This document shows positions 580 through 23,310 of a stretch of 26,680 nucleotides of DNA, piece after piece. A program made the position numbers and the translations under genes. The DNA lies in IMG/VR virus record IMGVR_UViG_3300011727_000001, positions 83,900 to 110,579 of that record. The stretch is one strand, 5' to 3'. Below the pieces are notes generated by a model. That model searched no databases, was not told the origin of the DNA, and saw nothing but the letters and a program-made list of their open reading frames with translations. The DNA comes from a virus (Duplodnaviria > Heunggongvirae > Uroviricota > Caudoviricetes). Every line of letters starts with the position of its first letter. Positions within the stretch are counted from its first letter, which is position 1.

Positions 580-939
580 CTATTCATCCAAGAAACCGAC
601 GCCATCATCATCGTCGTCTTCGGGTGGAACTTTTGGCGCACGCTTTCCTTGGCCAACAAGGCGCTCTGGGCGTGCGGGACGCACCGTGGGTGACGTCACG
701 TCATATTCTTTATCGAGAGAGAACCCGCCGTTTGCAGCGAGTGCGGTTTTCAGGGAGAGATTGGCTTTCTTGCTGCTGTCCTCATGGACGCCGGATAAAA
801 AGCCAAAAGCTTTGTCCACATGAGCTTGCTCAATATCGGAGCTATTCTCGATCAGGCGGATAAGGTCTGCATAGGTCTTGGCAACTTTACCAACCGCGGC
901 CTCGAACTTATCTCGCCCATTGGTCTTTTTCTCGCTCAT
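580..939 (-). CDS. Hypothetical protein, 119 aa, with acidic C-terminal tail (EDDDDDGVGFLDE)
   Basis: Open frame whose ATG overlaps the exonuclease stop (ATGA) and which ends 13 bp before recA; no family recognised. Confidence 0.8.
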   Translation of the reverse strand: MSEKKTNGRDKFEAAVGKVAKTYADLIRLIENSSDIEQAHVDKAFGFLSGVHEDSSKKANLSLKTALAANGGFSLDKEYDVTSPTVRPARPERLVGQGKRAPKVPPEDDDDDGVGFLDE

Positions 940-6900: not shown

Positions 6901-7350
6901 GGGGTTTGAGTCCCCAAGAGTGAGGCGAATATCGTCTTTCGTGAGATTATCCAACTCGGCGTAAAGATCGGCGAAGTCCAAGCGGGACACGTAATAAAAT
7001 CGCGGTTCCGCATTGGCCAGGGTCAGCAATCGGAATACCGCCTTCAAGCCCTTTTCTGACAAAATATAAGCCGTCGCATGATAAATCGGCTGGCCTTTTT
7101 TATTCTTCTTATCCGCCTTGTCAGCGCGCCATGTGTGATCATCAACCAAACGCAAACGAACACCAATAACAGGCTTTAAATCCGCCTTTTTACACCGATT
7201 GGTAAAATCAATCATGGCGGTGATCGACATAGTGTCGGTGATCGCGACAGCTTTCTCACCAAGGGCTTTAGCCGTTTCTACGAGATGGCTGACCTGCAGA
7301 ATGGATTCACCAATGGAAAAATCCGTTTTCGCGGCGAGAATAGAATGCAT
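3994..7350 (-). CDS. dnaE: DNA polymerase III alpha (C-family) with degenerate PHP domain and C-terminal UDG-family-4-like domain
   Basis: GPGRGSVGGSLVAY, LLFERFINPDRIDLPDADLDF, GQHAAG, VKMDILGL, GIFQFES, LYRPGPM, VYQEQVM, YGFNKSHS motifs. Confidence 0.97.
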   Translation of the reverse strand: MHSILAAKTDFSIGESILQVSHLVETAKALGEKAVAITDTMSITAMIDFTNRCKKADLKPVIGVRLRLVDDHTWRADKADKKNKKGQPIYHATAYILSEKGLKAVFRLLTLANAEPRFYYVSRLDFADLYAELDNLTKDDIRLTLGDSNPVMTHPDFAIIQENIQSRLGHVYATMIPVDTPYFARLNELSVEAIGRGAEALVVRPAFYREGEADAAEFMSAICNNNKIADPWHKSTFNRDFHLIGFSDLAKEVGKASQRFVERGNTSAGAYFKQGLLNTKGLVDAVSYEWSKAEVTLPQMSENEFASVVASCKKGWAERFSKPVFGHQPTKEELATIYQPRLKYELEILKKLNFSGYFLLVEDVVRFAKSSGILVGPGRGSVGGSLVAYLMGITECDPIRFGLLFERFINPDRIDLPDADLDFMSQRRHEIFQYLYDKYGTDRVAGVSNFSALAAASSIRDVGRVAGLSEREYVCSKYVPKLHGANVPLPDCAEQVTEIKAFSEKHSDLWEVMTRLEGTMRNYGQHAAGMIVGGVDLVERAVIERRKEGSVVNWDKRIVEDQGLVKMDILGLSTLDLINLTLDYVRERHGARPDLMRIPLDDQKVLENFANGMTTGIFQFESGGMRGLLKQLGQGGAITFDDITAATALYRPGPMESGMMESFYLRKQGYENVEYDHPDMMPVLEETFGVIVYQEQVMKISQVIAGYSAADADKLRKIMGKKLPEEMKKERGKFVDGCVAKIGANPEWAGQLFDKIEGFAGYGFNKSHSVEYTLISYQSMWLKVNYPVEFFAAALTLMDEDKLPGIIRDAGKFGIDVSMPDINISTDRFEIATDVRLVIPFQRIKGISGNTTNAILEARKSGPFRNKADFLARVEKRKCNIKHQDALDRVGAFCRIERDQLPATDPSRVRDLIELIPGLITANVPVNRDLDTSKHAKDDIGAIAHEYREKHGPGGSSDGLPVKPNFGRDARFMIIQDCPGAQEEEVGLMGWSQAVGCVIDAMSTHGLAREDAYWTALCKRAKADKQLSAEEIATYEPYLQREIDTIKPPVIVLLGSTTVRHFFPDFKGKASDQAGKVVYSKELDANLVIGFAPGEIYFSPEKQKNMDDVFYSVQNLLP

Positions 7351-7877
7351 TACAAATTCTCCTTAAGAACCGCTCCCGCTTCTGTGTCAACGATGACACC
7401 GATATGGGCGAGCGCTTGAAACGCCATACGCGCGTGAGCGTCGGCTGTGTTTTTTTGCCAGCCAAGTTTTTGAACCAAGGCTTGAGCCAATAACGGTCTT
7501 GGAAGAGGGCGGCCGAGGCGCATGAGCAAATGACAAGCCACTTGCATAAAAGGGCTTCTGCCTTCGAACGGATTAATTCCCTGCTTGATTTTTTCAGTGA
7601 TACGGAGATCTGAAATATCTAATTTCTCAATCAGGCGGCGAACCTTCACAGGAAGAACCATTGATGCGGGATCATCAGTGGGACTTGCCGCCGGCTTTAG
7701 CTTAGGCCCTCTACGCGTTGGTTGAATACCAAAGCGCTGCCGTAAGGCTGCGAGGTTTTGTTCGTGAAGTGGCTGGCACTGGCTGTTAAAAGGACATGCC
7801 TGACAAATTGTATTATCCGGCTGAAACGCGAGTGCTGAACCAAAGCAACCTGGAGCGAAATTAGGAATATCTGTCAT
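7350..7877 (-). CDS. Hypothetical protein with N-terminal 4-Cys cluster and possible C-terminal winged helix
   Basis: PGCFG...CQACPFNSQC; translationally coupled to neighbours (ATGA overlap upstream, TAATG overlap with dnaE). Confidence 0.8.
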   Translation of the reverse strand: MTDIPNFAPGCFGSALAFQPDNTICQACPFNSQCQPLHEQNLAALRQRFGIQPTRRGPKLKPAASPTDDPASMVLPVKVRRLIEKLDISDLRITEKIKQGINPFEGRSPFMQVACHLLMRLGRPLPRPLLAQALVQKLGWQKNTADAHARMAFQALAHIGVIVDTEAGAVLKENL

Positions 7878-8527
7878 CTGGACATAGCCTCACACATGCG
7901 CTCCCCAAGGGCGCGAATTTCTTTCATTATTTCGGTGCGTTCTGGATTGGGCGCATCCATAAGATCGAAGATCATCCACGCGGTTAGACGGTTGGTGGAC
8001 GAGGCCGTCATCCCCATTTCATCACGAGCGTATTCGGCTTTTTTCTTCATCCGGATAACCTCATTCAGAAGCTCTTCCGGCTGTTCTCGCAGCAGTGTGA
8101 TAAAAAGCTGGGCGCGCGGTTTTAGTTTCCGAATGGCGTGCTTAAAATGCTGATCTTCTTCAAAATCGGTTTCCGTTTTGATCGTTTCATCTGCAATCGC
8201 ATCGGCAAGCGTAATCGGCTTGTCGCCGGAATTAGACATGCTTGCGTCCAGAGACATTGCGATAACTTCGGTATGACGGCGCTCAATGTGTTTTTCGATC
8301 ACTCGGTTGATATGCAGTCGCATACCGTTCAAGAGATAAGCCTGAAATGGAACACCTAATTCCGGAGAATAGGCTTGTGATGCTTTCACCCAAGCCATTC
8401 GCAGTTCTTGCTGAATATCTTCCATGCTGAATGCGCGGCCGCCATCGCCGGCGGCACACAAACGCTTCATCACACGCCATGAGAAGGCTTTAATTGCCTT
8501 CTCACTTTTTTGAGGCTCCAGCAGCAT
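7874..8527 (-). CDS. Sigma-70-family-like factor (region 2-like and region 4-like segments)
   Basis: 'EDIQQELRMAWVKASQAYSPELGVPFQAYLLNGMRLHINRVI' resembles region 2 (D..QE..I....A...FD..G..F.TY); SLDA...TLAD linker; 'AIRKLKPRAQLFI' resembles the start of region 4. Confidence 0.65.
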   Translation of the reverse strand: MLLEPQKSEKAIKAFSWRVMKRLCAAGDGGRAFSMEDIQQELRMAWVKASQAYSPELGVPFQAYLLNGMRLHINRVIEKHIERRHTEVIAMSLDASMSNSGDKPITLADAIADETIKTETDFEEDQHFKHAIRKLKPRAQLFITLLREQPEELLNEVIRMKKKAEYARDEMGMTASSTNRLTAWMIFDLMDAPNPERTEIMKEIRALGERMCEAMSR

Positions 8528-9759
8528 TAGCCGAACACTCGCTGGGCGTATTCTTCAACCGCTTGTTTATCAATGCGAGACAAGCGGTTGGAGAATGACA
8601 GTTTCAAACCTTCCTTCCAGTCACCACCGAAATACATGCCGAGATCAGCAGCATTAATCAGCTCACGCGGTGAGATAGTCATAGAGATCCGACTATCTTT
8701 AAAGCTATCGCGAACATTCTTGGCGAATTTGACGATCTTTGCGGCCGTAGACTTATCGACGCCGGTTTTCGAAACAAGGATGGACTCTTCTACCGCCGCA
8801 TCCATGTATTCGACCTCTTCAACGATCGGAAAACGCGAATAGTTGGCAGCGTTCTGAATCAAGGTGCCTTGATACAGACCAGTTTCGTCACCAACACCGT
8901 TGGTGTTGCCGGTGGCTACGAAACGGAAGTTCGGATGAGGTTTGATCACGCGTAACTCAGGCGGGGCGTCTTTAATGACAAGCGGCTTACCTTCAAGCAC
9001 CGGCTGATAAACGGCGGTCACAGACGGCATGGCGAAGTCGTATTCGTCGGCGCAATAGACCCACCCATTCATCATAGCCATCGGAAGAGGGCCGAGCTGA
9101 AATTCGGTTACTGTGTGTGGTTTTTGAAGTGTTTCGCGCTGGCCGTTTTCGCCAAGAACTTCTTCTTCCGAAAGCTTCGTGCGAACCGAGTATTGGCCGA
9201 GAATATGAGCCTCTTCGGTATTGATAGTATGCTGAACGCGAACGAATGGGCGACCGGTGCGAGCGCAAACCTGCTCAAGAGCAGTCGTCTTACCAGTGCC
9301 GTGAAATCCCCAAAGATAAACCGGCTTGTTGATTTCCAGACCAATGATGATCTTTTTCACAAGGTCGATATTGAACACGTAATCGTGATCGACGGCTTGA
9401 ATATAAGGAAGCGCCTGTTCGGATTTATCTTCGATAACGGCGATTTCAATTGGATTACCAATCGAACTACGCGCCGCGCGCGCATCGCCAAACTCAAAGA
9501 TATCATGGAGATAGTTCTTCTTACCAGAAGTCACGATGTTATCACCTGACTGCGCCTGTGCTTTCGCTTGGAGACGCTGCAAGATTGCTGCTTTGGCTTT
9601 ATCCGAAAGGATCGGCGCGTCAGGAAACTCTTTCTGGTAACGCTCGATAGACCAGTCGGGATGATTGTCGCGCAAATGAGCTTGAATGGTATGAACTCTT
9701 GCACCATCAATCTGACAGACGATTTTTCCATCTGAATTTGTGTTGGCCTGATCAGCCAT
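8527..9759 (-). CDS. MoxR/CobS(CbbQ/NirQ/NorQ)-type AAA+ ATPase with N-terminal C2H2-like element
   Basis: Walker A GFHGTGKT, Walker B YCADEYD, 'HPNFRFVATGN', C-terminal 'ISPRELI'. Start moved to ATG 9759 (RBS AAGAGG 8 nt upstream). Confidence 0.92.
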   Translation of the reverse strand: MADQANTNSDGKIVCQIDGARVHTIQAHLRDNHPDWSIERYQKEFPDAPILSDKAKAAILQRLQAKAQAQSGDNIVTSGKKNYLHDIFEFGDARAARSSIGNPIEIAVIEDKSEQALPYIQAVDHDYVFNIDLVKKIIIGLEINKPVYLWGFHGTGKTTALEQVCARTGRPFVRVQHTINTEEAHILGQYSVRTKLSEEEVLGENGQRETLQKPHTVTEFQLGPLPMAMMNGWVYCADEYDFAMPSVTAVYQPVLEGKPLVIKDAPPELRVIKPHPNFRFVATGNTNGVGDETGLYQGTLIQNAANYSRFPIVEEVEYMDAAVEESILVSKTGVDKSTAAKIVKFAKNVRDSFKDSRISMTISPRELINAADLGMYFGGDWKEGLKLSFSNRLSRIDKQAVEEYAQRVFG

Positions 9760-9794
9760 GTCTTGCACCTCTTTCTCTCTCTCGCGTGTTGCGA

Positions 9795-9874: not shown

Positions 9875-12574
9875 TTAATTGGTAAGAATAGCCTTCAATT
9901 CGCGCATCACCTCAGTAGGGAGATCCTCCACGCGATTAAGGACGATATGGTTTTTATAGAAACGACGCACCGCCTGATCCATGATGCCGATACCAACCAG
10001 ATCAATGCCGATTTTTTCGAGTTTTTCCGTGGTCTGCTTCAAATGACCAGCCGCGTTTCTCGCGCCAGCTGGCTGCCCATCAGACAGAACGAGCATCACT
10101 TTCCGCTTTTCACGCCTACGCATAAGACGAATAGCCGCGTATTCGAGGGACTCGCCGTCCACGTTCGTAACCATGCCGTTTTGAGCGTTAGCCATATACG
10201 CGATGCGTTTTTTAACTTCGGAATTAATCCGTTCGTCAAATTCTTTGTAAATTGGCATCACGATCGGAACTGTGCGGTGATAGGTAATTCCCTTCTGCGC
10301 GTCTTTCCAAATTTGCTGACTTGCTTCTTCCATGGCCTTGCGAGAACCGGTGCCGCGATGATCGCCGGTTGTAAAGCCCATTAGCTCGCAAGGAATACCC
10401 ACACGCTCAAGCGTTTGAGCAAGCGCATATGAGGCGACCATAGCCGTCTCAATCTTTGCGCCACCCATTGAGCCGGAGTTGTCCACCAAAAGCGTTACAG
10501 CAGTTTCCTTCGACTTATGTTCCTGTTTTCGATTAAAAAGACGATCATCGCCTTGGACGATGCGGTGAAGAGACGGGCCATTTAAACGACCTGCTCTGAA
10601 GCCTGGAACGCGAATGACATGACTTTGCGAAGCCATCATACGCTCAATATCCTTCTGCATTCTTCCCGTCATAGAGCGAGTTTTCTCGTCTAGCTCCGGC
10701 ACCCATGCAGGATTGATTGTGGGCGGCTGAAGCACCTCAATACGGTCGAATTCACGGGTGTAGACGTTATAGTCATTGTCCTTCAGAAGATCGACCGCCT
10801 CATTTGCAATCAGAACAGCAAGCTGGCTAGAAACATCGGCTTTATCAAAAGCATCATCCGAGAAATCGAAAAGCGATTTACCCAGTCCGCCACCAACGCC
10901 ACCTCCGGAATTATCCGTGTCGTCTTCCGCTACACCAATATCACCAGCCTCGTGATCATCCGTCTGAATTGCTAAACGATCGGCTTTTTGCCCTTCTTCA
11001 CGCGATGAGCCTTCTTTATCTGGATCATCTTCGTCGTCACCATTCTCTTCACTTTCGCCATCTGATGAAAATTCATCATCCTCATCGTGGCCGCTTCCCG
11101 CATCGGACTCGTCGCCTTCCTGCGCTTCATCATCGGTGGCATCATCAGCATCTGGCGCATCCTCTGGATCACCCGACGTGTCGTCGTCACCTTTGTCGTT
11201 TTTCTCCCCATCTTCATCAGGTGATTGGTCTTCGATGTTGCCGTCATCTTCCTCTGCCTGATCGTCGCTATCGGACTTTTCGTCGGCGTCTGGATCTTCG
11301 ACTTCATCATTCTCCGGCCGCTCTCCTTCAGCCTCGTCATTTTCTGATCCGGATTGCTCACCTTCCTGCTTATCGTCCGCATCATCTTGCAATTCCTCCT
11401 TATCACCTTGCGATGCAGCCTTAGAATCCTCAACGTCGGCGTTATTGTTCGCTTCGCCGTTAGCATCCTCATCAGATGCCTCATCATCAGAAGGTTGATG
11501 ATCACGCTCCCCGGTTCCATCACCTTTACTTGCTTGCTTATTCGGTTTGTCCTGAGATTCGCTATCGGACTGCTGATCCTGGCTTTCACCACTCTCCGAA
11601 CTGTCTTCGGAACTTTTACTGCTGCTACAAGGTGACGGCGGGGGCGTTATGTATTCGAAAGCGTCGACCTTGCTTCCGAGGCCATGCTCGGTTTGAATTT
11701 CTACAGTCACGAAACCAGCCGCGTGAGCCGGGGTCTCCACAACGACGTTCCGCACATCCTGATGCGCAAGAATTTTAGCAAGGCTGCCGTCAAACTTGAC
11801 CCACTCGATATCCTGAAAGTTCGTGCCTGTGATTTTGACCGGATCGCCACCAACAGTGAAACCCTGATTAGGAGTTACCGCCGTGATAGTTGGCCGTGGA
11901 ATGACAGGATAAAGAATGCTGTCCAGAACCTTGGCAACTTCAAGAGTTTCGCGTGTGGTGCGAGCCTTTAAAAGACTCTTTTTAACCGGAGCTGAGAGTT
12001 TACCAACCAACTCTTTAACAAGCGGATTATCCCAATGATTTTCATCATCCATATAATCCTGGAATTCTGTATGACCGGCGAGGGCGCGCATCAGCACGAC
12101 AAGAAGATAACTAAACTTCTCCTTATCGTTTTTTGCTACAGCGACAGCCGGCTTGGTGATTTTTGCAATAAAGTGGCGACGAAGATCGCCAATATTCTTT
12201 TTCGACCCAGGAAAGATGCGCTCCATTTCGCGCTCAATCATGGTGTCCTCAATGATGTTGTGAAGGGAGCGCAAACGCTGCACCTTTTTATCCATCAGCT
12301 GCTGCTGCGTCACGCGATAACCAGCAACCCAATCCCAATCGGTAATGAGAACGTGGCCTACCTCGTGATCGATAAAACCCTGGATAGCGCGAACGAAACT
12401 AGGCTCGGCCGTATCCGGTATGTTGGGAATATTCACCTGTTCGGGTTTGCGAGTTACAGGGTTTGCAATGACATACGCTTCTGAACCGCGTTGTGTAACC
12501 CTTAATCCCTTACCGACGAGCATCGGAATGAGCTTCGTGACAACCTCACGAAGCTCTACAATCTCACGGTTCAT
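9875..12574 (-). CDS. CobT-like vWA protein: HExxH domain + IPT/TIG domain + acidic linker + vWA
   Basis: DHEVGH...HNIIED near the N-terminus; PTITAVTP..G...GG..V.ITGTNF (IPT/TIG); ~240 aa Asp/Glu-rich region; vWA MIDAS LLVDNSGSM...DGES...VLSDGQP. Confidence 0.9.
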   Translation of the reverse strand: MNREIVELREVVTKLIPMLVGKGLRVTQRGSEAYVIANPVTRKPEQVNIPNIPDTAEPSFVRAIQGFIDHEVGHVLITDWDWVAGYRVTQQQLMDKKVQRLRSLHNIIEDTMIEREMERIFPGSKKNIGDLRRHFIAKITKPAVAVAKNDKEKFSYLLVVLMRALAGHTEFQDYMDDENHWDNPLVKELVGKLSAPVKKSLLKARTTRETLEVAKVLDSILYPVIPRPTITAVTPNQGFTVGGDPVKITGTNFQDIEWVKFDGSLAKILAHQDVRNVVVETPAHAAGFVTVEIQTEHGLGSKVDAFEYITPPPSPCSSSKSSEDSSESGESQDQQSDSESQDKPNKQASKGDGTGERDHQPSDDEASDEDANGEANNNADVEDSKAASQGDKEELQDDADDKQEGEQSGSENDEAEGERPENDEVEDPDADEKSDSDDQAEEDDGNIEDQSPDEDGEKNDKGDDDTSGDPEDAPDADDATDDEAQEGDESDAGSGHDEDDEFSSDGESEENGDDEDDPDKEGSSREEGQKADRLAIQTDDHEAGDIGVAEDDTDNSGGGVGGGLGKSLFDFSDDAFDKADVSSQLAVLIANEAVDLLKDNDYNVYTREFDRIEVLQPPTINPAWVPELDEKTRSMTGRMQKDIERMMASQSHVIRVPGFRAGRLNGPSLHRIVQGDDRLFNRKQEHKSKETAVTLLVDNSGSMGGAKIETAMVASYALAQTLERVGIPCELMGFTTGDHRGTGSRKAMEEASQQIWKDAQKGITYHRTVPIVMPIYKEFDERINSEVKKRIAYMANAQNGMVTNVDGESLEYAAIRLMRRREKRKVMLVLSDGQPAGARNAAGHLKQTTEKLEKIGIDLVGIGIMDQAVRRFYKNHIVLNRVEDLPTEVMRELKAILTN

Positions 12575-12590
12575 CTTTCTCTCCGATATA

Positions 12591-12619
12591 TAAGTAATCT
12601 ATGACTTATTTTTATAGCG
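12591..12619 (-). promoter_or_regulatory. Operator TAAGTAATCTATGACTTA with adjacent -10 CGCTATAAA
   Basis: Operator 12591-12608; TTTATAGCG 12611-12619; immediately upstream of the vWA gene start. Confidence 0.75.
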
Positions 12620-12842
12620 TCAATTTTTGGGCTTCAAATGGATAAATAAGGATTGAGTTTCCAAATGCTGGAATGACCACGAAAACAAGTCCGTCTTCGT
12701 TATGCTCTCCCGAATAGACAATAACGCCGCCGCCATCGGTTTTATGAAGATTGGTGAGTTGATCTACTTTTGCCTCTGCTTCTTCCTGAGTTACAGAGAC
12801 CATTACCTTCTTGCTCAATTCTACCATTAACGTATCTTTCAT
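12612..12842 (-). CDS. Hypothetical protein, 76 aa
   Basis: Fills the gap between XRE and vWA genes; operator TCAGTAAGCCATTACTTA (12847-12864) just upstream. Confidence 0.7.
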   Translation of the reverse strand: MKDTLMVELSKKVMVSVTQEEAEAKVDQLTNLHKTDGGGVIVYSGEHNEDGLVFVVIPAFGNSILIYPFEAQKLTL

Positions 12843-12929: not shown

Positions 12930-13337
12930 TCATGCTTTGGAAGCGAAAAGTTTCGTCAATCCGTCTTTCAACTCAACGGTCAAATCTGGATTTGTGCCAT
13001 TCGAGGCTTCGCGAATTGTATCGAGAATCTCTTTTTCGTTTTCCGTGATTACCGAGTTAAAGAGGGGCATAAGCTCCTTCAAAACGGCTTCATCAAAGAA
13101 TTGCTCCAACGCGAGGCGGAATAAAAACGCCGGATCTGCTTCAAGTGCCTTAGCCATACTTGGAACACGATCCAAAGCCAGCTTAGAGCGACCTTTTTTC
13201 AACATCGAAATGAAGTTTGGATTAGCAAAACCTGCTTCTTCCGCGATAACCAGCTGAGATTTTCTATACTGCAGCTGGTTAAGTCTCTCATTAAGATATT
13301 TCTGTAGATTCGACTGACTGTTTCCGGCAGTCTCCAT
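12930..13337 (-). CDS. XRE/Cro-CI-family HTH regulator (candidate repressor)
   Basis: 'KSQLVIAEEAGFANPNFISMLKKGRSKLALDRVPSMAKALEAD' is a typical XRE HTH; -10 TGCTATAAA at 13382-13390; own terminator. Confidence 0.85.
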   Translation of the reverse strand: METAGNSQSNLQKYLNERLNQLQYRKSQLVIAEEAGFANPNFISMLKKGRSKLALDRVPSMAKALEADPAFLFRLALEQFFDEAVLKELMPLFNSVITENEKEILDTIREASNGTNPDLTVELKDGLTKLFASKA

Positions 13338-13461
13338 ATTAAATTTTCCCTTTTTCTATCTCTATCGCGTTGTGTAATTTATTTATAGCAGCTGGCGATA
13401 GGGGCTCTATGAAATAAGAGCCGTAAAAGAATATGGTCGAGTGTTCCCATAGCGGCAATAA

Positions 13462-13479
13462 TAAGTCAATAGCTACTTA
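13462..13479. promoter_or_regulatory. Operator copy TAAGTCAATAGCTACTTA between divergent XRE and RHH-repC units
   Basis: Two mismatches to the consensus palindrome. Confidence 0.6.
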
Positions 13480-13644
13480 TTTAAGTTCAGCGAGTTCCAT
13501 AATAAGGGTTATGCACTCCAGTTGAAAACCACATCTTAAAAAGGGGTTATGGTTAAATATGCTTTAAAAGTTACACGTAACCCTTGCCAAATCAGTCAGA
13601 ATCGCGGTTACTCGCACCGTTGTAATTTGTATGTGGAGATTCGT

Positions 13645-13845
13645 ATGTCTGCTGAAAAAGCTGAAAGGCTTCGTGAGCGTCGTCGAGCCAAAGGTATGAA
13701 AGAAACTACGATCTGGTTGACGCGTGAAGCGGATCAGACGATCTCCAACATTGTTGAGTTAAAGGGCCTCAAAAATCGTTCCGAGGCCATACAGTATGCG
13801 TTGAGCCGGCTTTCCTTCAACGAGGAGACCCAATCGAGGAACTGA
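13645..13845 (+). CDS. Ribbon-helix-helix (CopG/ParG-like) protein, 66 aa
   Basis: GGAG RBS before ATG 13645; beta strand 'ETTIWLT' then helices '..ADQTISNIVELKGLKNRSEAIQYAL'. Confidence 0.7.
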   Translation: MSAEKAERLRERRRAKGMKETTIWLTREADQTISNIVELKGLKNRSEAIQYALSRLSFNEETQSRN

Positions 13846-13850
13846 CAAAA

Positions 13851-13930
13851 GGAAAAAACCCCAAGGCTGCAACCAAGGGGTTTTTGAAACTCATCGCTGC
13901 ATTGGCAACGTGATTCGGCATACGCTTCCG
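13851..13930 (-). ncRNA. Candidate counter-transcribed RNA (ctRNA) of the repC replicon; ends approximate
   Basis: Minus-strand TTGACA at 13954-13959 pointing away from repC, and hairpin AAAAACCCC...GGGGTTTTT (13854-13885) with A/U tails on both sides; same layout as repB-repC intergenic ctRNAs. The -10 match is weak. Confidence 0.55.
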
Positions 13931-13959
13931 TTTTTCACACGCCTACATGCTGTTGTCAA

Positions 13960-13980
13960 CACTGAATCACCGATTCAGTG
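13960..13980 (+). promoter_or_regulatory. Stem-loop in repC leader (S-element-like)
   Basis: CACTGAATC-ACC-GATTCAGTG perfect 9-bp stem containing two GANTC sites, 35 nt before the repC ATG. Confidence 0.6.
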
Positions 13981-14015
13981 AATGAGATCCTTTGTCCAAA
14001 AGGGTAAGAAATAAC

Positions 14016-15119
14016 ATGCAGACGGTAAATTCCGGCTGGCGGCGACCTGCGCGCATCGCTCAGCCCTCTACCCCGCCGCCGGAGGTAGGGCTGAAGGAAC
14101 TATTTGCTGCCTCACGTTTAGCTGTGACGGCGTTATCACTGCGTTCCAGTCAGCGCTTTGTTCTCGATCAGCTGGTGGGCTGTTTCAGAGGCGAGCTGAT
14201 TCATGGTCGCTATTTAGTATGGCCATCTAACGAATTTCTGATGGAACGCACCGGACTTTCCGAGCGCGCTGTTCGTTACGCTATCCGTGGATTGATTGCG
14301 GAGGGCGTCATTACTTCCAAGGAGTCGGCGAATGGCAAGCGTTTCGCAGTGCGCTCTAAAAGCGGTCAGATTACGGACGCTTATGGCATAGATTTATCCC
14401 CTCTTCTGCAGCGTCAGGCTGAATACAGCGAACGATGTGAGGAGATTAAGGTCGCTCGTGAATACCGGAGACGCCAATTCGACGAGATCACCATCTGCCG
14501 ACGGTCTACGCAGGAAATGCTTAGCGTTCTGTCACGCGTGACGGATAAAGAGCCAATTGATGACCTTCTGAGGGAATTTGACCGTCAGGTTGAAATGTTA
14601 CCGCGACGGGATAGCCTAGCCAGCCCTGAAGCCGCTCTTGCATCATGGCGTGCTCTCTTGGAAGTTACACAATCAAGATATGATGCCGCCTTTGGGGGCA
14701 ATAACAGCCGTATCATTAAAGACAACAACGAGAATCCTGACCAGTCTTGTTACAAAGGCTTTGAGGATATTAAGCAAAAGCGGACAGAGCCAACCATGGT
14801 CGAGATCGCAGATGCTTGTCCAGACGCAATGCAGTATGTGACAAATGTGAGAACGGAACGCGACCTTATAAATGAAGCAGGAAGATTGCGCGGCGTTTTT
14901 GGCACACATGAAAGCGCGTGGCACGAGGCAATAGAGTTATTGGGGCCGGCGCGCGCCGCAAAGGCGTTTTTCGTAGTGCTGCAAAGATATTCCGATGATG
15001 CCGGTCAAACCATTAAGAACTTCGGCGGTTACTTCCGCGCTTACGTTCGCATGATTGACACTGGCCGCGTTGATCTTAACGAGGAGGTGCGCGGGATGCG
15101 CCGACGACGAGCGAATTAA
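14016..15119 (+). CDS. repC: Plasmid replication initiator RepC (repABC family)
   Basis: 'SGWRR' N-terminus; 'VWPSNEFL...SERAVRYAIRGLI.EGVITSKESANGKRFA....AYGIDLSPL' matches RepC HTH and 'RDSPNGKRY..FGFDLSPL'; C-terminal 'IKNFGGYFR'. Start set at ATG 14016. Confidence 0.9.
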   Translation: MQTVNSGWRRPARIAQPSTPPPEVGLKELFAASRLAVTALSLRSSQRFVLDQLVGCFRGELIHGRYLVWPSNEFLMERTGLSERAVRYAIRGLIAEGVITSKESANGKRFAVRSKSGQITDAYGIDLSPLLQRQAEYSERCEEIKVAREYRRRQFDEITICRRSTQEMLSVLSRVTDKEPIDDLLREFDRQVEMLPRRDSLASPEAALASWRALLEVTQSRYDAAFGGNNSRIIKDNNENPDQSCYKGFEDIKQKRTEPTMVEIADACPDAMQYVTNVRTERDLINEAGRLRGVFGTHESAWHEAIELLGPARAAKAFFVVLQRYSDDAGQTIKNFGGYFRAYVRMIDTGRVDLNEEVRGMRRRRAN

Positions 15120-15230: not shown

Positions 15231-16661
15231 TTATTTTGATTTTTCTCCCGCTTTATCATCACGAAAGCATTTAAATCGTGGATGTCGAAGCGACCCGTCA
15301 GGCGTTACTTCGTGATACTCGACCTCGATCATTCGTCCGAGCAGCTTATATTCATGGTCGTTTTGAAGGCGTCCGAAAGGAATTGAGTGACCTGGTTTGT
15401 AGCCGACCATTGGATTAATTTTCAAATGGCGAGCATCCTCGCACCAGAGTTCCCACAATTCTTGACGCAATTCTTTTGAATAACCGCCACCAACACGCAC
15501 TTCTACGCCGTTACGATTGACGATCAAACCGCCAATGGTGTTTTCGAACTCTTTATTAGGTTCACCATTGTAAACACCAACGATGTAAAGATCGTCAGTC
15601 TCTTCCGCTTTGATCTTCAACCAACCATAGGATTTTTTCTTGTCGTAAAGCCCCTTTGGATCTTTCACCATCGCGCCTTCAAGACCGCGCTCCTGAAACT
15701 TGTCATAAAGCTCCATGATCTCGGCGTGACTATTGACCAAATAGCGCGGCGTCTTGGTGATGATTTTGTCGTCTGCATGGCTAACAAACTGCTCAACCAG
15801 ACTTCTTCGGCTCATATAAGGGCTACCAACCGAACCGGTAGCGTCGAAATCCGCGAATGACATAATGTCAAAGACGTTGAAAAGCGCATCTTTGGCCGTT
15901 TCGCTTGTTCGGCGCAAAGCTCCCGTTTCCGCGAAAGTATCATTCACGGTCATTTCACCATCAACCATGAAATTAAGACTAGAACGCGTATAAACACCCA
16001 AATGCCCAGGCTTGCTGCTGAGCGTATAAGAAAGATCGCCTCTTACCTTATCATTTTGCAACGCGGTAAGCGCTGTCTGGATCATTGGTTCAACCAGATG
16101 CTCTGCAGCTGGAGCACGTTTGCCGGATCGGGTAAAGAAGCCACCGCTTCCTTCGCGGCACAGGAACGTAAACCGATAACCGTCCAGTTTAGGCTCAACC
16201 ACTTGCGGCCAAGATTTGATGCGTTTTTCTTCATAATGATGGGCGCGCATCACAGCGAATACCGGAATAAGACCTGGCATTACCGTCTGAATAGAGGACT
16301 CTGCAATTCCGCAGCGAAGATCCTTATTAAGGATACGGAACAAAAGATCTGCGCCATCATCAGTTGATGCCTCAAAAGCAACACGCACAACATCCGCCGC
16401 GGCATTACCCGTCAACTCTCGCTGTGACAGCTTATGTAAAAGCGGCTCAATATTTTGAATGGTGAATTCTGTTTTCGTCGTGAAATTGGAACCAGCCTTA
16501 ATGGGTTTCAGGCCATAGGTGATGAATGGATCATACGCCCATTTAACAATGAATTTTCCAATATCGGTTGTCAGCAGTTCCGCCAGTAGCTCTTGTTTTC
16601 CAATTCGGGAACTTTCGGCTGCAATCTGCTCAACTTTGGCGAGAGCTTCAGAGGCATTCAT
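15231..16661 (-). CDS. ATP-dependent DNA ligase
   Basis: Adenylation motif EPKLDGYR, MVDGE, LFNVFD, EGAMVK, KIK, C-terminal OB 'EVEYHEVTPDGSLRHPRF..FRDDK'. Confidence 0.95.
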   Translation of the reverse strand: MNASEALAKVEQIAAESSRIGKQELLAELLTTDIGKFIVKWAYDPFITYGLKPIKAGSNFTTKTEFTIQNIEPLLHKLSQRELTGNAAADVVRVAFEASTDDGADLLFRILNKDLRCGIAESSIQTVMPGLIPVFAVMRAHHYEEKRIKSWPQVVEPKLDGYRFTFLCREGSGGFFTRSGKRAPAAEHLVEPMIQTALTALQNDKVRGDLSYTLSSKPGHLGVYTRSSLNFMVDGEMTVNDTFAETGALRRTSETAKDALFNVFDIMSFADFDATGSVGSPYMSRRSLVEQFVSHADDKIITKTPRYLVNSHAEIMELYDKFQERGLEGAMVKDPKGLYDKKKSYGWLKIKAEETDDLYIVGVYNGEPNKEFENTIGGLIVNRNGVEVRVGGGYSKELRQELWELWCEDARHLKINPMVGYKPGHSIPFGRLQNDHEYKLLGRMIEVEYHEVTPDGSLRHPRFKCFRDDKAGEKSK

Positions 16662-16678: not shown

Positions 16679-17233
16679 TGCATTAATAGCCGCGGCAAGA
16701 TCGCCGGTGATAGCAGCCTGATTAATGTTTTGATTAACTGATTGTTTTGAAGGAGAATTCTCGGCTTCGATTTTCTTGCGTGGTTGGCTTTTAATCGGCT
16801 CGAATTCACTCGCGACGCGGCTTGGCTTACCGGGAGCGGTTCTCATCTGTTCATCGATCCGAGTATTCGCCGACAACAATAGAGCGCGTTCAGCGTCAGG
16901 AACGCGATATTGATCCATAATATTTTCGCGCATCATTACCGGCCGGATACGCTCCAGCAGAGACAGCATCAACTTGCCGTCTTTTGGCGCTTTCGAACCA
17001 TGATGATCATTATCCCAATCGCTATTATAAGCGTATCGGCGAACCATTTCAGAAGCGGGACATTTCGAGCAAGCCATTGCAGCTTGACATCCGCGACGCA
17101 CTTCGGTTCTGACACCTGCATAAAACATATCCCTGAGCTTGACACAGGCGCCCATACGGGTCGTCGTGTTGAAAAGGGGGCATGTGAATTGAAACTGATT
17201 ACTGTATGAGAGACTGTCGAAGGTTTTAGGCAT
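16676..17233 (-). CDS. Cys/His-rich hypothetical protein
   Basis: CP...C...GC..A..CSKCP...DHHG; coupled to the upstream gene. Confidence 0.8.
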   Translation of the reverse strand: MPKTFDSLSYSNQFQFTCPLFNTTTRMGACVKLRDMFYAGVRTEVRRGCQAAMACSKCPASEMVRRYAYNSDWDNDHHGSKAPKDGKLMLSLLERIRPVMMRENIMDQYRVPDAERALLLSANTRIDEQMRTAPGKPSRVASEFEPIKSQPRKKIEAENSPSKQSVNQNINQAAITGDLAAAINA

Positions 17234-17760
17234 CAGAACCTCCCAAATTTAGGATTTGAGCGCAGAACGTCCAGCTCTTTCTCTCGCTCTGCTCTTTCCA
17301 CAGCCGCCACCGCGTCCGGGTCAAATTTTACCCGACGACGATATTCACCAATGTAATTATCATCATCGTCGCGATTAGACTCCGGCTCTCGCATTCCTGC
17401 GGTGTCATAATTGGGATCAAGATGAGTGACATTCGATGCGCCAATTTTCGGGAACACAGTTCGACCGATGACCAGGCTTAGCTTTTCAGGCGCATCAACA
17501 CTAACAATCTTTTCGTCGGTTATTTGATAACCTTTAGAGCTGGATTGGCGCTTCATTACCTCTTTTGTGTAATCGTTTTCGGCCTCGGCTACAGTGTCAA
17601 ACTTTGCAACTCTTACCTGCCCGATTGCGCCCTTTGCGCCCCATCTTCGAACCACAATTGCTTTGCCCTGGGCGTTAGCCATCAGAGTGATAAAATATTC
17701 TTTTGTCCCACCTTTATGGGTCAAAGAACACTTCGTTCCTTCCATTGGATAAACAGACAT
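17233..17760 (-). CDS. WGR-domain protein
   Basis: 'KEYFITL....AIVVRRWGAKGAIGQ...F...AEAE.....K.....KGY' fits the WGR pattern. Confidence 0.75.
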   Translation of the reverse strand: MSVYPMEGTKCSLTHKGGTKEYFITLMANAQGKAIVVRRWGAKGAIGQVRVAKFDTVAEAENDYTKEVMKRQSSSKGYQITDEKIVSVDAPEKLSLVIGRTVFPKIGASNVTHLDPNYDTAGMREPESNRDDDDNYIGEYRRRVKFDPDAVAAVERAEREKELDVLRSNPKFGRF

Positions 17761-18929: not shown

Positions 18930-20260
18930 TATTCACGCCCAATTACTTTGTTCAGAAACTGCATTTTTTGACGATTTTGCTTAATACGCAGCGAGAACCC
19001 ATCTTCAGTGTTACGTGAAAGCGCCCAATACAAACGCGCCTCACCCGCTGCTTTTTCCGCATCAGTGGCGTTAATGCCGATCAAAATGTCCACGGTGCGA
19101 GCTTTATTCCAATCATCGCCAACATCTGTGGCCTTAGCAGTTGCGGCCTTCGCACCGTCGCGATTAGTTTGGGTTGCCGTTAAAAGCGCGGCGTCAAACT
19201 CATGTGCAATCGCGCGGAGATCAATATAGATTGTGCGGAGATTTTCCTGAAGGTTATCTGAACGGTATTCCGAGGCCATAATGTCAGCGTAATCGACCGT
19301 AATCAGGTCAAAAATAATACCGTCATTCCGGTATTCTTCTATGATGCGATACAGCTGAGACGGCTTCAATGTCCCTGAAGCAAAGTCACGCATTTTGAAC
19401 GCGCCGGATTTTGCTTCTACAGCCTGAATTTTAGCCTTAACTTGAGCGGGATCGACCGCCAGATCCTTAATCATCGTATCGGATAGAGCGGCGTCAATGC
19501 GCTCGGCGATAATCCAACTCGCGACTTCGCACGATCCATAAAAGGCGTTAAATCCAGCCAATGAGGCGTTTTTGGTAAAATCGCCCAAACCAAGCGATTT
19601 ACCTGCTTTCGCCGCCCCCATGAGACAGGACAATTCGCGCCGCCCCCAACCTGCATGGAACAGACAGGCGTCAATTCCTGAGTATCCGGTGGTAATGCCG
19701 CGCTTAACAAGCCTGCCGGCCTTAATATCCTCACGGCGCTGAGTTCGGCTCACGATCTCTTTAAAGTAATCGTAATCTTGGCTCTCAATTTCATTTCCGA
19801 CTGAGAGCGCTTGCTTCATCAACTTCTCAATCGATTTCCAGTCTTTCTTTTCGAGAGCCGGAAGCGATGCCATGATAGCTTGTTCAACCGCCTGGTGCCG
19901 AGCAAAGTCGCGCACTTTGTCGATCACAAAGTTGGAATTCGAAAGATCGACATTTTTTCCAATCGCGCTTTTTACAACAGCGAGAACGTCATCCTTCATA
20001 TCCGCACGAATACGCTTTTGACCAAACGCGTCTTTCAGTAGCGTTGGTAGAATACGAACATCAGGTGCGCTTTTATAGGTTTTGAGGTAATCCTGAACCA
20101 TATTAATCACGGCGCCGTCAGCGGCTTCGGTGAAATATTCAGCCTTAATCAAATCCTTGGTGCGCATAGCGAATTGGGTATCGCGCATAAACAGAGAAAC
20201 GACTTTACTCTGGAACGCTCGATCAAATTCGTATGTGGGTTGCTCAAATTCATCACTCAT
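18929..20260 (-). CDS. Replicative DnaB-like (T4 gp41-type) helicase
   Basis: Walker A GAAKAGKS, ITVDYADI, TATQTNR motifs; coupled to primase. Confidence 0.93.
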   Translation of the reverse strand: MSDEFEQPTYEFDRAFQSKVVSLFMRDTQFAMRTKDLIKAEYFTEAADGAVINMVQDYLKTYKSAPDVRILPTLLKDAFGQKRIRADMKDDVLAVVKSAIGKNVDLSNSNFVIDKVRDFARHQAVEQAIMASLPALEKKDWKSIEKLMKQALSVGNEIESQDYDYFKEIVSRTQRREDIKAGRLVKRGITTGYSGIDACLFHAGWGRRELSCLMGAAKAGKSLGLGDFTKNASLAGFNAFYGSCEVASWIIAERIDAALSDTMIKDLAVDPAQVKAKIQAVEAKSGAFKMRDFASGTLKPSQLYRIIEEYRNDGIIFDLITVDYADIMASEYRSDNLQENLRTIYIDLRAIAHEFDAALLTATQTNRDGAKAATAKATDVGDDWNKARTVDILIGINATDAEKAAGEARLYWALSRNTEDGFSLRIKQNRQKMQFLNKVIGRE

Positions 20261-20523
20261 TACAGCACCATGAAATAAGTAAGCGATGACTTATAATATA
20301 CGCTAAAATAAGCGCTATCATTCCGGCTCAATTTCAGCGAAAACTGATCCGCAGCCACCAATGTTCCTTCGATCGGATCACTTTCATCAAGAGTCTTAAT
20401 ACGGATCTTTTTGCCAATCGCAGCTTGAAGATCATCCTGATGCGACCACGTTTTCGGTTTTGATGCTTTAAATGTGATTGTTTGATTTTTTGGGCGATAA
20501 CCGTCCCGACGAAAACCTGTCAT
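20260..20523 (-). CDS. Hfq/Sm-like RNA-binding protein
   Basis: 'HQDDLQAAIGKKIRIKTLD...IEGTLVAADQFSLKL....VYYKSSLTYF' aligns by eye with the Hfq core (QD..L; G.I..FDQF.I.L; YKHAIST). Confidence 0.65.
   Translation of the reverse strand: MTGFRRDGYRPKNQTITFKASKPKTWSHQDDLQAAIGKKIRIKTLDESDPIEGTLVAADQFSLKLSRNDSAYFSVYYKSSLTYFMVL
20276..20303 (-). promoter_or_regulatory. Operator TAAGTAAGCGATGACTTA and -10-like GCGTATATT inside the Hfq-like CDS
   Basis: Operator 20276-20293 (one mismatch) just upstream of the helicase ATG; -10-like element 20295-20303. Confidence 0.6.
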
Positions 20524-22230: not shown

Positions 22231-23310
22231 TTAATTTGGTATAGTTTTACCAACCAGACGACCAGATCCTGTGAGGCTAATACGCTGAACGCCCCAAATA
22301 GAGAAGCTGTCGCCACCAGCTGCGCCACCTGATCCAGCCCCGACGTTACCAGCTGCGCCGGTGGCTCCAGCTCCGCCAGGTTGACCCCAGTCACCACCGT
22401 CGCCGCCGCGACCGCCGCGACCAGCATTGGTTCCACCCCACTGACCATCCTGTCCGTTAGTTCGCGCAATACCGTAACCGACACCGACACCACCGGCGCC
22501 ACCCGCTCCGCCGTTAGTTCCATACCAATCAGTTTTATCTCTAACGATACCGCTAGCTTGATATGTTCCCTGATAGCCCATTTCTCTAGGAATATTATAA
22601 GTGCCAACTTTGTGATAAGCCCAACCGTCGCCGGGGTAAAACGGAGATGGCGGCAACCAACTGCTGGAGTTATGCATCCGCCAGCCATTCCATACGATAA
22701 TCCAACGTGACCACTCGCTGTAATCACCGCCGCCTGATCTTTCGTAATATCTTTCTTCACCGTAATGGAACGAGCCTTTACTGAAATGCTGACCGTTTAC
22801 AGGCTCACGAGTATAAACGGAATAATTACCGGCGCCGCCTTTACCACCAGCACCACCGTTACCGCCGCGACCTCTAATGATCCCGTTATTAATCACCGGA
22901 ACGATAGACGTCACGCCTTGGTCGATAGCCAAACCTTCGACAACAGTGCCACCTGAAAGAATGCCAGTCGGTGTAATTTCAAGGATAAATTCACCCCCAT
23001 ACTGCGTATCAATACGCAGGGAGTTTCTTTCACCAGTAACCCGTAGCCGCTTCTTCTTATTGGAGCTCCACAAACCAGCTTCGTAATTATTGAAGATGGC
23101 AGAACACAGATTAAGGCCATTACCCAATGGAGCATCGATAACGATTTCGGAAGATTTACCGCGAAGGTCATTAAATGAGATAGGGCCGCTTGGCTTCTCT
23201 GCTAAGGCGCGCACCGCTGCGTCATTAAGATTGAAAGGCGCATTCTGCGCGCGCCCAAGCTCAATATTAATCATAGCGGCAGTGATAATACCGGAAGACG
23301 GAAGTGTCAT
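22231..23310 (-). CDS. Gly-rich tail-tip adhesin / receptor-binding protein (gp38-like)
   Basis: Short N-terminal cap MTLPSSGIITAAMINIELG; repeated GRGGNGGAGG motifs flanking an aromatic-rich (W/Y) insert; ATGA-coupled to the fibre gene. Confidence 0.7.
   Translation of the reverse strand: MTLPSSGIITAAMINIELGRAQNAPFNLNDAAVRALAEKPSGPISFNDLRGKSSEIVIDAPLGNGLNLCSAIFNNYEAGLWSSNKKKRLRVTGERNSLRIDTQYGGEFILEITPTGILSGGTVVEGLAIDQGVTSIVPVINNGIIRGRGGNGGAGGKGGAGNYSVYTREPVNGQHFSKGSFHYGEERYYERSGGGDYSEWSRWIIVWNGWRMHNSSSWLPPSPFYPGDGWAYHKVGTYNIPREMGYQGTYQASGIVRDKTDWYGTNGGAGGAGGVGVGYGIARTNGQDGQWGGTNAGRGGRGGDGGDWGQPGGAGATGAAGNVGAGSGGAAGGDSFSIWGVQRISLTGSGRLVGKTIPN

Follow-up and report, generated by a model that had tools for sequence, protein, structure and literature searches.

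The interval between positions 12930 and 15119 of the window (the whole 26,680-nucleotide stretch of DNA analysed here) is very probably the plasmid-maintenance replicon of a siphovirus-type phage-plasmid of Hyphomicrobiales, a member of the RHEph10/pLM21S1 group that has an SSU5-collinear backbone and carries its own initiator at its own locus. Phage-plasmids shuttle genes from phages to plasmids and back, and detailed work on them has been almost entirely enterobacterial. The window is the final 26.7 kb of a complete, circularly assembled viral contig of 110,579 bp, an element that encodes virion, replication and partition genes. The interval and its flanks contain the following features.

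3994-7350, minus strand: DnaE, a replisome gene on the cobT side of the module
8527-9768, minus strand: CobS/MoxR AAA protein, on the cobT side of the module
9875-12574, minus strand: CobT-like vWA protein carrying an IPT/TIG insertion (Pfam CobT_C 2.3e-41, TIG 2.3e-11), the left flank of the module
12612-12842, minus strand: conserved ORF of 76 aa, with homologues in RHEph10 and a Shinella plasmid and none in SSU5
12930-13337, minus strand: XRE-type HTH regulator of 135 aa (PHROG transcriptional regulator, 2.7e-5; homologues annotated XRE/HTH)
13462-13479, no strand: in the region of the divergent promoters, one copy (2 mismatches) of the element-wide 18-bp palindrome TAAGTAA-N4-TTACTTA
13645-13845, plus strand: ribbon-helix-helix (RHH, CopG-like) protein of 66 aa, first gene of the rep operon
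13846-13924, minus strand: predicted counter-transcribed (antisense) RNA of ~79 nt, from a conserved minus-strand promoter and terminator
13854-13885, minus strand: hairpin H1, an intrinsic terminator with a U-rich tail, which reads best on this strand
13931-13959, minus strand: predicted antisense promoter (-35 TTGACA at 13959-13954, 17-nt spacer, -10 GAAAAA at 13936-13931)
13960-13980, plus strand: hairpin H3 in the repC leader, whose two 9-bp arms match perfectly across a 3-nt spacer
14016-15119, plus strand: replication initiator RepC, of 367 aa if read from the ATG (a TTG at 13992 opens the longest ORF)
about 14667-14766, inside repC: A+T-rich block with dyad symmetry, a candidate oriV by nucleotide conservation
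15231-16661, minus strand: ATP-dependent DNA ligase (Pfam DNA_ligase_A_M 8.4e-18; 29% identical to SSU5_044), the right flank of the module

An earlier, sequence-only reading of this DNA had placed RepC, in opposite orientation, between the ligase and a block of XRE, vWA, AAA+ and dnaE genes. This arrangement holds: repC is an intact ORF on the plus strand, and the ligase on one side and the XRE, CobT, CobS and DnaE genes on the other all read oppositely. The CobT-vWA protein is kept in SSU5 (30% identical to SSU5_049) and is 64% identical to its Shinella plasmid homologue. The neighboring 76-aa ORF matched no Pfam or PHROG family and, judging from its homologues, is specific to the RHEph10/pLM21S1 lineage. 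A sigma-like protein is also encoded on the cobT side of the module. The window further encodes RecA, a 5'-3' exonuclease, a gp32-like SSB, a primase, a DnaB-like helicase, PhoH, a WGR protein and a tail fibre. The earlier description of virion and lysis genes alongside a complete replisome survives in part. Virion and replisome genes are present; no lysis gene could be identified inside the window, a CHAP-domain endolysin candidate being located just beyond its end across the circular junction (genome positions 859-1368), and 'complete' was an overstatement, as neither a clamp nor a clamp loader was seen among the replisome genes.

RepC matches Pfam RP-C (PF03428; 4.2e-37, profile positions 21-172 of 175), Pfam RP-C_C (PF11800; 3.5e-16, profile positions 4-100 of 102) and a PHROG replication protein family (5.8e-57), and the presence of both domains in one intact ORF places the predicted product in the RepC initiator family. 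It is 45-68% identical to RepC of RHEph10-group phages and plasmids. Neither repA nor repB is found upstream; RepB-like ORFs precede repC only at the Microvirga repABC loci taken for comparison. The locus does not constitute a repABC operon, because the sole upstream gene is that for the 66-aa RHH protein and an intact ParA and ParG cassette lies ~65 kb away. By its gene content, it belongs with the solo 'repC family' replicons. The annotation of plasmid pRlX6 splits repC into two ORFs; should this reflect a genuine frameshift, that plasmid may not need RepC.

The likely origin of this replicon is the predicted oriV in the A+T-rich block inside repC. The 120-nt segment of lowest GC content coincides with repC nucleotides 631-750 in 10/10 homologues. 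Identity at third codon positions is 0.70-0.74 within the block versus 0.42 overall, and invariant residues have invariant codons in 5/5 cases inside the block and in 1/63 outside; in silico, the block is under selection at the nucleotide level. In the window's own repC the A+T dip is shallow, from 53% to 45% GC. For the repABC plasmid p42d, oriV has been located within repC and RepC is sufficient for replication; its RepC gene likewise contains an A+T-rich element in its middle (PMC3155836).

The assignment of the 66-aa protein draws on several lines of evidence. Searched against the PDB, a profile of 11 homologues matched a designed RHH protein, NikR, CopG and ParD at E values of 3.7e-4 to 2.4e-2, including the CopG structures 1b01 and 2cpg (E about 7e-3). 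Pfam RHH_1 was detected in 6 of the 11 homologues, and those of the relatives carry RHH/CopG annotation. An AlphaFold2 model reached a pLDDT of 87; a Foldseek search with it gave 0 matches at E<=0.001, and the best-ranked entries were all RHH proteins. In silico, the RHH gene is joined with repC in one rightward unit.

Between these two genes, an antisense RNA gene of ~80 nt is predicted with strong in silico support, its product being complementary to the repC leader. Applied to the complete MAFFT alignment of the leaders, RNAalifold returned almost nothing (-0.26 kcal/mol); since the variable middle was misaligned there, the leader elements were analysed one by one. The stability of H1 favours the minus strand in 19/20 relatives (mean -22.1 versus -16.8 kcal/mol). 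Across 17 distinct H1 sequences, 89% of cells pair and two-sided changes occur in 11 of 14 pairs, a level that 0/500 shuffles reached. GTCAA is constant in 20/20 leaders, the spacer of the antisense promoter is free of indels, and in most relatives the minus-strand sequence is TTGACA-N17-GATAAC; the -10 of the window (GAAAAA) is weak. A hairpin is present at the position of H3 in nearly all relatives, with a different sequence in each, and a small hairpin after H3 takes in the ribosome-binding region. A plus-strand repC promoter with a TTGTCA box was also considered and dropped, as no -10 is conserved at the correct spacing. Neither a ctRNA nor any other credible family emerged from Rfam searches at E<=1 with the window's module and seven related loci. 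With blastn, the RHEph10 leader matched only plasmids of the Rhizobium leguminosarum complex and two phage-plasmids, and it was absent from pRmeGR4a-like records.

The arrangement recalls the copG-repB region of pMV158, where a small RHH repressor gene directly precedes the initiator gene and an antisense RNA acts against the initiator leader. The likeness is confined to control logic, since the rolling-circle initiator RepB and RepC differ in family and replication mode. The repC-family plasmids of the pRmeGR4a type resemble the window's replicon in having repC without repA and repB and a counter-transcribed RNA gene upstream, which is predicted in our case. That RNA is given there as 55-59 nt, versus about 80 nt predicted in the window, where an RHH gene precedes it. 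For the repC family (Izquierdo 2005, cited in PMC10194956) an antisense RNA regulator is described, and repC-family modules are said to lie beside a repABC cluster in every case (PMC10194956). In contrast, no second plasmid replicon is recognisable on the element described here.

The XRE gene is divergent from the rep operon. It is present in all phage-plasmid members and missing beside the solo-repC cassettes of ordinary plasmids. Its matches to Pfam HTH_37/HTH_3 are weak, and we regard it as a candidate prophage repressor. The TAAGTAA-N4-TTACTTA palindrome occurs in 12 copies in the window versus 0.08 expected; the copy at 13462-13479 is positioned just downstream of a minus-strand promoter-like site (13528-13499).

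The ends of the parent contig overlap by 77 bp, so that it closes on itself. Circularity of the assembly is compatible with a plasmid and with a terminally redundant virion genome alike; the genome of B1VFA ends in direct repeats of 3.6 kb (PMC12509600). As the sequence-only reading had stated for the window, there is no integrase: neither a tyrosine integrase nor a serine recombinase or resolvase was found in the window or across the 110,579-bp genome. No tRNA genes were found in this genome either, and a 263-aa protein it encodes gave no informative match in an Atlas look-up. Its GC content is 49%, versus about 60% in RHEph10-group relatives.

Outside the replicon, the genome resembles that of the Salmonella phage SSU5. 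Reciprocal best hits between the two number 32, all collinear, with identities of 22-56% (TerL 56%, portal 51%); they cover terminase, portal, capsid and tail genes, a ParB-like pair and a helicase, RecA, 5'-3' exonuclease, SSB, DnaE, CobS, CobT, ligase, primase and DnaB. The earlier assignment to an SSU5/pHCM2 gene set is borne out by these genes with the exception of PhoH, which tblastn did not find in SSU5. Homologues of the window's XRE, RHH, RepC, sigma-like and WGR proteins are likewise missing from that phage. SSU5 does use a RepA-type initiator (IncFIB type), as the earlier reading had stated. It is encoded at another locus, beyond recA, and the space between ligase and cobT holds only small ORFs and a tRNA. 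The description of an SSU5-like backbone carried on a RepC replicon is correct. The element falls outside the SSU5 supergroup, having RepC instead of RepA and a wGRR to SSU5 of 0.084, a value from crude ORF calls that is an underestimate and unlikely to reach 0.23; wGRR between SSU5 communities is 0.23-0.59 (PMC7969092).

The suspected kinship with RHEph10 was well founded. By sequence, the element is a divergent further member of the RHEph10/pLM21S1 phage-plasmid group, which includes RHEph10, the Sinorhizobium plasmid-prophage pLM21S1, B1VFA, V1VFA-S and RHph_X66 (PMC4447125, PMC12509600). The module occupies the identical place in RHEph10, B1VFA, RHph_ phages and pLM21S1; in RHEph10, B1VFA and a Shinella plasmid, a leftward XRE gene and a rightward RHH-RepC pair are situated between cobT and ligase. 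Members have siphovirus-type genomes of about 110-122 kb with a gene order like that of our element throughout, ParA and ParB-like genes, cobST, DnaE and no integrase. Collinear reciprocal best hits number 37 with RHEph10 (crude wGRR about 0.11) and 53 with the Shinella plasmid. RepC is 45-48% and DnaE 64% identical to those of the RHEph10 group. The nearest relative is this Shinella zoogloeoides plasmid (RepC 62%, TerL 90% identical), whose DNA shows 73% identity over 23% of the window. The best megablast matches of a 25-kb query in phage and plasmid collections had 73-74% identity over 2% and 23% of its length, and a near-identical characterised element therefore does not exist in these collections. 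DnaE tblastn against phages matched 1415 records and was too unspecific for placing the lineage. A scan of genome contigs returned 0 relatives with single-protein patterns and 20 with an alignment-based search. Four circular plasmids from Shinella, Sinorhizobium, Pararhizobium and R. beringeri (115.6-119.4 kb) carry the module, and so do contigs of 70-118 kb from Phyllobacterium, Faunimonas, Ancylobacter and Chelativorans, all Hyphomicrobiales. Some relatives are phages and others are plasmids, and the locus is unchanged in about 20 divergent members.

By analogy with p42d, Ti and pRmeGR4a for RepC and with pMV158 for CopG, we infer the following mechanism. The RHH protein would autorepress the rep operon, and the antisense RNA would pair with the repC leader and reduce RepC synthesis, keeping copy number low. 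RepC might open the origin within its own gene, in cis, and recruit the replisome, and the distant ParA and ParG could segregate the plasmid copies. The XRE protein is the best candidate for a repressor acting on the 18-bp palindromes before the leftward replisome and structural operons; if it does, the phage DnaE, helicase and primase would be off in the plasmid state and on at induction. Dual replication, by the host replisome via RepC in lysogeny and by the phage's own replisome in lysis, is a plausible inference.

Alternatively, one origin could serve both modes, with RepC and the internal oriV as sole initiator and origin, loading the host replisome in the plasmid state and the phage DnaB, primase and DnaE during lytic growth. 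We consider this possible, at well below even odds. No other initiator is recognisable among the window genes, PHROG groups the window's RepC with phage replication proteins, and the repC module is kept in the midst of the replisome gene block in every member; against this, the scan for initiators outside the window covered only part of the genome. It is improbable that the element is a strictly virulent phage that is never a plasmid, with RepC as its lytic initiator and the par genes as remnants or serving another purpose. The contig does come from a viral collection. RHEph10, B1VFA and the RHph_ phages were isolated from plaques, none of them is proven to form lysogens, mitomycin C did not induce pLM21S1, and no single member has been shown to be both plaque-forming and plasmid-maintained (PMC4447125, PMC12509600). 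However, cultured bacteria harbour close relatives as circular plasmids, and predicted copy control by an RHH protein and an antisense RNA, along with intact ParA and ParG, would suit low-copy upkeep and not runaway lytic replication. That repC was picked up from a rhizobial plasmid as a passenger and is decaying, or that the element is an integrated prophage, is very remote: RepC is by far commonest on alphaproteobacterial plasmids, with 2316 matching PLSDB records, and the Faunimonas contig has a RepC of a different lineage, so cassettes do get exchanged, yet the ORF is full-length with both domains, sits at the same locus in about 20 divergent members and has an internal block with synonymous sites under selection, and the contig closes on itself without an integrase or resolvase.

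The preferred reading remains a phage-plasmid maintained by its own RepC replicon. Such elements are already known, having been described as RepC plasmid-like prophages or phage-plasmids in 2015, 2021 and 2025 (PMC4447125, PMC7969092, PMC12509600); novelty as a kind of element is not supported, and the picture is unchanged. What this genome adds is breadth, since at 49% GC, with a RepC only 45-68% identical to those of its relatives, it extends the sequence range of the alphaproteobacterial RepC branch. The comparison of about 20 members also provides testable coordinates for a predicted RHH repressor, a predicted antisense RNA and a predicted repC-internal origin. The solo RHH-repC cassettes of large Rhizobium leguminosarum plasmids nest within the phage-plasmid RepC clade. 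Tentatively, and with more doubt than confidence, we propose that the phage-plasmid lineage could be the natural home and donor of RHH-ctRNA-repC replicons and the only setting in which a repC-family module is the sole replicon, that the R. leguminosarum cassettes, given their nesting, would be captures from phage-plasmids, and that a single RepC and oriV might pass from the host to the phage replisome once the XRE repressor is lifted. Our findings suggest an exchange of replicons between phage-plasmids and large rhizobial plasmids.

A Pfam map of the window bears out the arrangement proposed in the sequence-only reading, in which repC lies between the ligase gene and the HTH/CobT/CobS/DnaE genes, in opposite orientation.

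Features of the window (Pfam assignments, except the 76-aa ORF, the HTH protein and the small ORF)
3-566, minus strand, RecA
936-1886, minus strand, 5'-3' exonuclease
2018-3034, minus strand, gp32-like SSB
3994-7350, minus strand, DnaE with C-terminal UDG-like domain
7874-8527, minus strand, sigma-70 region-2-like protein
8527-9768, minus strand, CobS/MoxR AAA+
9875-12574, minus strand, CobT-vWA with TIG insert
12612-12842, minus strand, 76-aa ORF
12930-13337, minus strand, 135-aa HTH protein
upstream of RepC, plus strand, small ORF
ending at 15119, plus strand, RepC (RP-C 4e-37, RP-C_C 3.5e-16)
15231-16661, minus strand, ATP-dependent ligase
between ligase and tail fibre, WGR protein (17233-17760), primase, DnaB-like helicase and PhoH
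23307-25775, minus strand, tail fibre

That reading had also placed virion and lysis genes here; the tail fibre is present, but no lysis gene is identifiable within the window, and a CHAP-domain lysis candidate lies directly past the circular junction (genome 859-1368). IMG/VR rates the 110,579-bp viral contig, of which the window is positions 83900-110579, as 100% complete. Its first 77 bases equal its last 77, which is the assembler outcome expected from a circular or circularly permuted molecule. The absence of an integrase, first remarked for the window, extends to the whole genome: neither Phage_integrase nor Resolvase gave a match, while the same searches detected both families in most control genomes. 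Partition genes, sought elsewhere on the contig, were found at genome 32615-33515 as a 219-aa ParA and, after it, a ParG-like RHH protein, and the genome also has two ParB_N proteins and a helicase, like SSU5. No tRNA genes were found in the genome, and relatives carry 1-4. Its GC content is 49.1% (relatives 56-63%; Shinella plasmid and RHEph10 both 60%), and a typical high-GC member of the Rhizobiaceae is an unlikely host.

Several proteins deserve mention in their own right. The UDG-superfamily domain occupies aa 968-1069 of DnaE (Pfam UDG 3.9e-11), a fusion likewise mentioned in the RHEph10 annotation. An IPT/TIG domain is inserted at aa 228-308 of the CobT-like vWA protein, which forms with the CobS/MoxR ATPase a pair kept from SSU5 to the window's lineage; no CobN accompanies the pair. 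An 87-aa ORF (20260-20523) overlapping the helicase start shares 53% identity with an ORF of the Shinella plasmid, with no Pfam or PHROG match and no counterpart in RHEph10 or SSU5. Outside the window, a 263-aa gene (genome 36555-37346) drew no informative match from either Pfam or the protein atlas.

For comparison with the Salmonella phage SSU5, the SSU5, RHEph10 and Shinella plasmid records were rebuilt from loci with crude ORF calls and matched by reciprocal best hits. The genome shares 32 such hits with SSU5 (mean identity 35.6%, crude wGRR 0.084), 37 with RHEph10 (45.8%, 0.114) and 53 with the Shinella plasmid (66.9%, 0.22), all three wGRR values being underestimates because the ORF caller sometimes chose the wrong strand. 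The SSU5 matches form a single unbroken collinear series from the small and large terminase to the helicase: terminases, portal, capsid and tail genes, then a ParB-like/helicase block and nuclease subunits, then RecA, exonuclease, DnaE, CobS, CobT, ligase, primase and helicase. The series includes the terminase and capsid genes looked for outside the window (TerL 56% identical, portal 51%, capsid 48%). Within the window, 12 of 27 genes have SSU5 homologues, in identical order; none was found for the XRE, RHH, RepC, sigma-like, WGR, PhoH and 76-aa genes. The sigma-70 region-2-like (7874-8527) and WGR proteins are kept in the rhizobial lineage. Where the window has the RepC module, the ligase-cobT gap of SSU5 holds four small ORFs and a tRNA, and the SSU5 RepA is located beyond recA on the opposite strand, a different locus from that of RepC. 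Given the collinear backbone and the different initiator locus, the proposed description of an SSU5-like backbone with its initiator replaced by RepC is therefore accurate. Judged by published wGRR ranges, however, the genome is a distant relative of the SSU5 supergroup rather than a member.

The closest relatives are phages and plasmids that carry RepC. In tblastn searches, RepC matched 45-47% identical proteins in ten Rhizobium phage records, including RHEph10, RHph_N1_10, N1_15, N2_6, X66, Y2_11, Y2_17_1, B1VFA and V1VFA-S. The top four PLSDB matches were circular plasmids of 115.6-119.4 kb, from Shinella zoogloeoides (62% identical), Sinorhizobium sp. LM21 (pLM21S1, 47.7%), Pararhizobium qamdonense (44.7%) and R. 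beringeri (pRlX6, 45.7%). The window agrees gene for gene with annotated neighbourhoods in RHEph10, B1VFA and the Shinella plasmid, down to the divergent layout between cobT and ligase, with HTH leftward and the small ORF and RepC rightward; the Shinella plasmid bears terminase, major capsid, tape measure, ParA and ParB genes. Four bacterial contigs also carry this cobT-HTH-RHH-repC-ligase module, from Phyllobacterium myrsinacearum (118 kb), Faunimonas pinastri (109 kb), Ancylobacter rudongensis (114 kb) and Chelativorans composti (70 kb), as do three more IMG/VR contigs of ~116 kb each. No close DNA match was found among public phage and plasmid records, the best having 73% identity over 23% of the window.

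This group has been described before. pLM21S1 was reported as a plasmid-like prophage that lacks an integrase and has a replication system of RepC type, sharing 83 genes with RHEph10, and both were named archetypes of a new group (Dziewit et al. 2015, PMC4447125). RHEph10 was later placed at the edge of the Acinetobacter 'AB' community, itself shown to be a remote relative of the SSU5 supercommunity (Pfeifer et al. 2021, PMC7969092), and B1VFA and V1VFA-S, with parA, parB and repC, were called possible prophage-plasmids (Gunathilake et al. 2025, PMC12509600). The suspicion that RHEph10 is related, voiced as a caveat to novelty, was justified, since the literature already describes the group, and RHEph10 carries the same module at the same place. 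The kind of element is not new; what the window's genome adds to it is a new and divergent member.

The small ORF likely starts at the ATG at 13645, giving 66 aa, as in its homologues. A profile built from 11 homologues matches RHH regions of a designed RHH protein (E 3.7e-4), NikR (1.7e-3) and CopG of pMV158 (7e-3), as well as ParD antitoxins; six of the 11 reach Pfam RHH_1, and homologues carry RHH or CopG annotation in public records. Its AlphaFold2 model (pLDDT 87) has a helix at the N-terminus, then an extended segment and two more helices, and its top Foldseek neighbours are RHH proteins, none significant. In none of the phage-plasmid members is repC preceded by repA or repB, unlike in the Microvirga repABC loci, where the same scan found RepB upstream of repC. 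The RHH-repC pair also occurs without phage genes on large Rhizobium leguminosarum/beringeri and Microvirga plasmids.

The 170-nt RHH-repC spacer keeps its architecture across 20 sequences. A strong hairpin (H1) directly follows the stop codon of the RHH gene, and after it come a variable part and a block in which GTCAA is invariant. Next are a second hairpin (H3), a GCTTTG-type element that is conserved, and a small hairpin including the ribosome-binding region. The sequence of H3 varies from member to member; in the window, at 13960-13980, it is a 9-bp inverted repeat with perfect pairing. On the minus strand the invariant block reads TTGACA, a 17-nt spacer free of indels in all 20 sequences, and GATAAC in most members (GAAAAA in the window), and is a predicted sigma-70-type promoter directed leftward. 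In 19 of 20 sequences H1 has its more stable form on the minus strand (mean -22.1 versus -16.8 kcal/mol on the plus strand), minus-strand G-U wobbles being A-C mismatches on the plus strand, and only on the minus strand is it followed by a long U-rich tail. Across 17 distinct sequences, 89% of H1 alignment cells pair and both sides have changed in 11 of 14 pairs, values matched by none of 500 shuffles; slid registers fall to 28-64% paired. From the conserved promoter and the strand asymmetry and covariation of H1, we therefore conclude that a counter-transcribed RNA of ~80 nt is predicted, running roughly from 13924 to 13846. It matches no Rfam model. The predicted layout corresponds to the published rhizobial 'repC family' of solo repC with an antisense RNA; a passage of PMC10194956 citing Izquierdo 2005 describes that RNA as a negative regulator and incompatibility determinant.

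Within repC, the lowest-GC 120-nt stretch falls at nucleotides 631-750 in all ten homologues, a dip of 8-16 points. Third-position identity in the codon alignment reaches 0.70-0.74 at codons ~218-240; the overall value is 0.42, and most other windows give 0.26-0.48, with a smaller peak of 0.56 around codon 291. Amino-acid identity over codons ~218-240 is only average. All five invariant residues within codons 222-250 have an invariant codon, compared with one of 63 outside. Short dyads of GCCGCC-N3-GGCGGC type and an A-rich run lie within the block, whose counterpart in the window is at about 14667-14766. In repABC plasmids, oriV is in an A+T-rich mid-repC region and RepC alone is sufficient (PMC3155836); apparent DNA-level selection at the mid-repC block fits that position and would make it a candidate origin.

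In a maximum-likelihood tree of 28 RepC proteins, the window's RepC clusters with those of an IMG/VR contig and the Shinella plasmid (support 100/99). Solo cassettes of the R. leguminosarum complex nest in a clade otherwise of phage-plasmids alone, beside B1VFA/X66 and pLM21S1, and the RepC of the Faunimonas phage-plasmid clusters with the clade of Microvirga plasmids (100/100); these placements indicate that RepC replicons may occasionally be exchanged between phage-plasmids and plasmids in both directions, direction being only suggested because the proteins were sampled for their similarity to the query and the tree is midpoint-rooted. The Faunimonas pinastri contig (locus L024, 4608-6128), which retains the cobT...ligase frame with extra DNA flanking the RepC cassette, appears to record a replicon swap inside the phage-plasmid lineage. 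Three R. leguminosarum-complex plasmids (L027, L049, L050; 260-290 kb) carry a solo RHH-leader-repC with no phage genes nearby, one adjoining a transposase, and their leader has ~75% nucleotide identity to that of RHEph10. The annotation of R. beringeri pRlX6 (locus L045, 1483-2629) splits repC into two overlapping ORFs, one with the HTH domain and the other with the C-terminal part of RepC, reflecting either a frameshift or a sequencing error; a real frameshift would question the need for RepC in maintenance there.

An 18-bp palindrome, TAAGTAA-N4-TTACTTA, occurs 12 times in the window (3381-26166) against 0.08 expected. Eleven copies directly precede leftward genes, among them cobS, cobT, ligase, the helicase operon and PhoH, and nearly all copies stand in front of leftward replication, chaperone, PhoH or tail-fibre genes. 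One copy (13462-13479) sits between the HTH and RHH genes, directly downstream of a minus-strand promoter-like site. The palindrome looks like a putative element-wide operator, with the product of the adjacent XRE gene a candidate binder. Every phage-plasmid member has the XRE-type HTH gene, which does not accompany the solo RHH-repC cassettes on ordinary plasmids; this distribution makes the product of the gene, we infer, the best candidate repressor gating the lytic and replisome operons. RepC would use the host replisome in the plasmid state, and upon induction the phage replisome would take over.

Collectively, the RepC module is real and its reading essentially right, but the group was previously published. 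Our analysis adds coordinates and comparative evidence for an RHH/antisense-RNA/internal-origin replicon organisation that, as far as we know, has apparently not been set out for these phage-plasmids in the group's literature.
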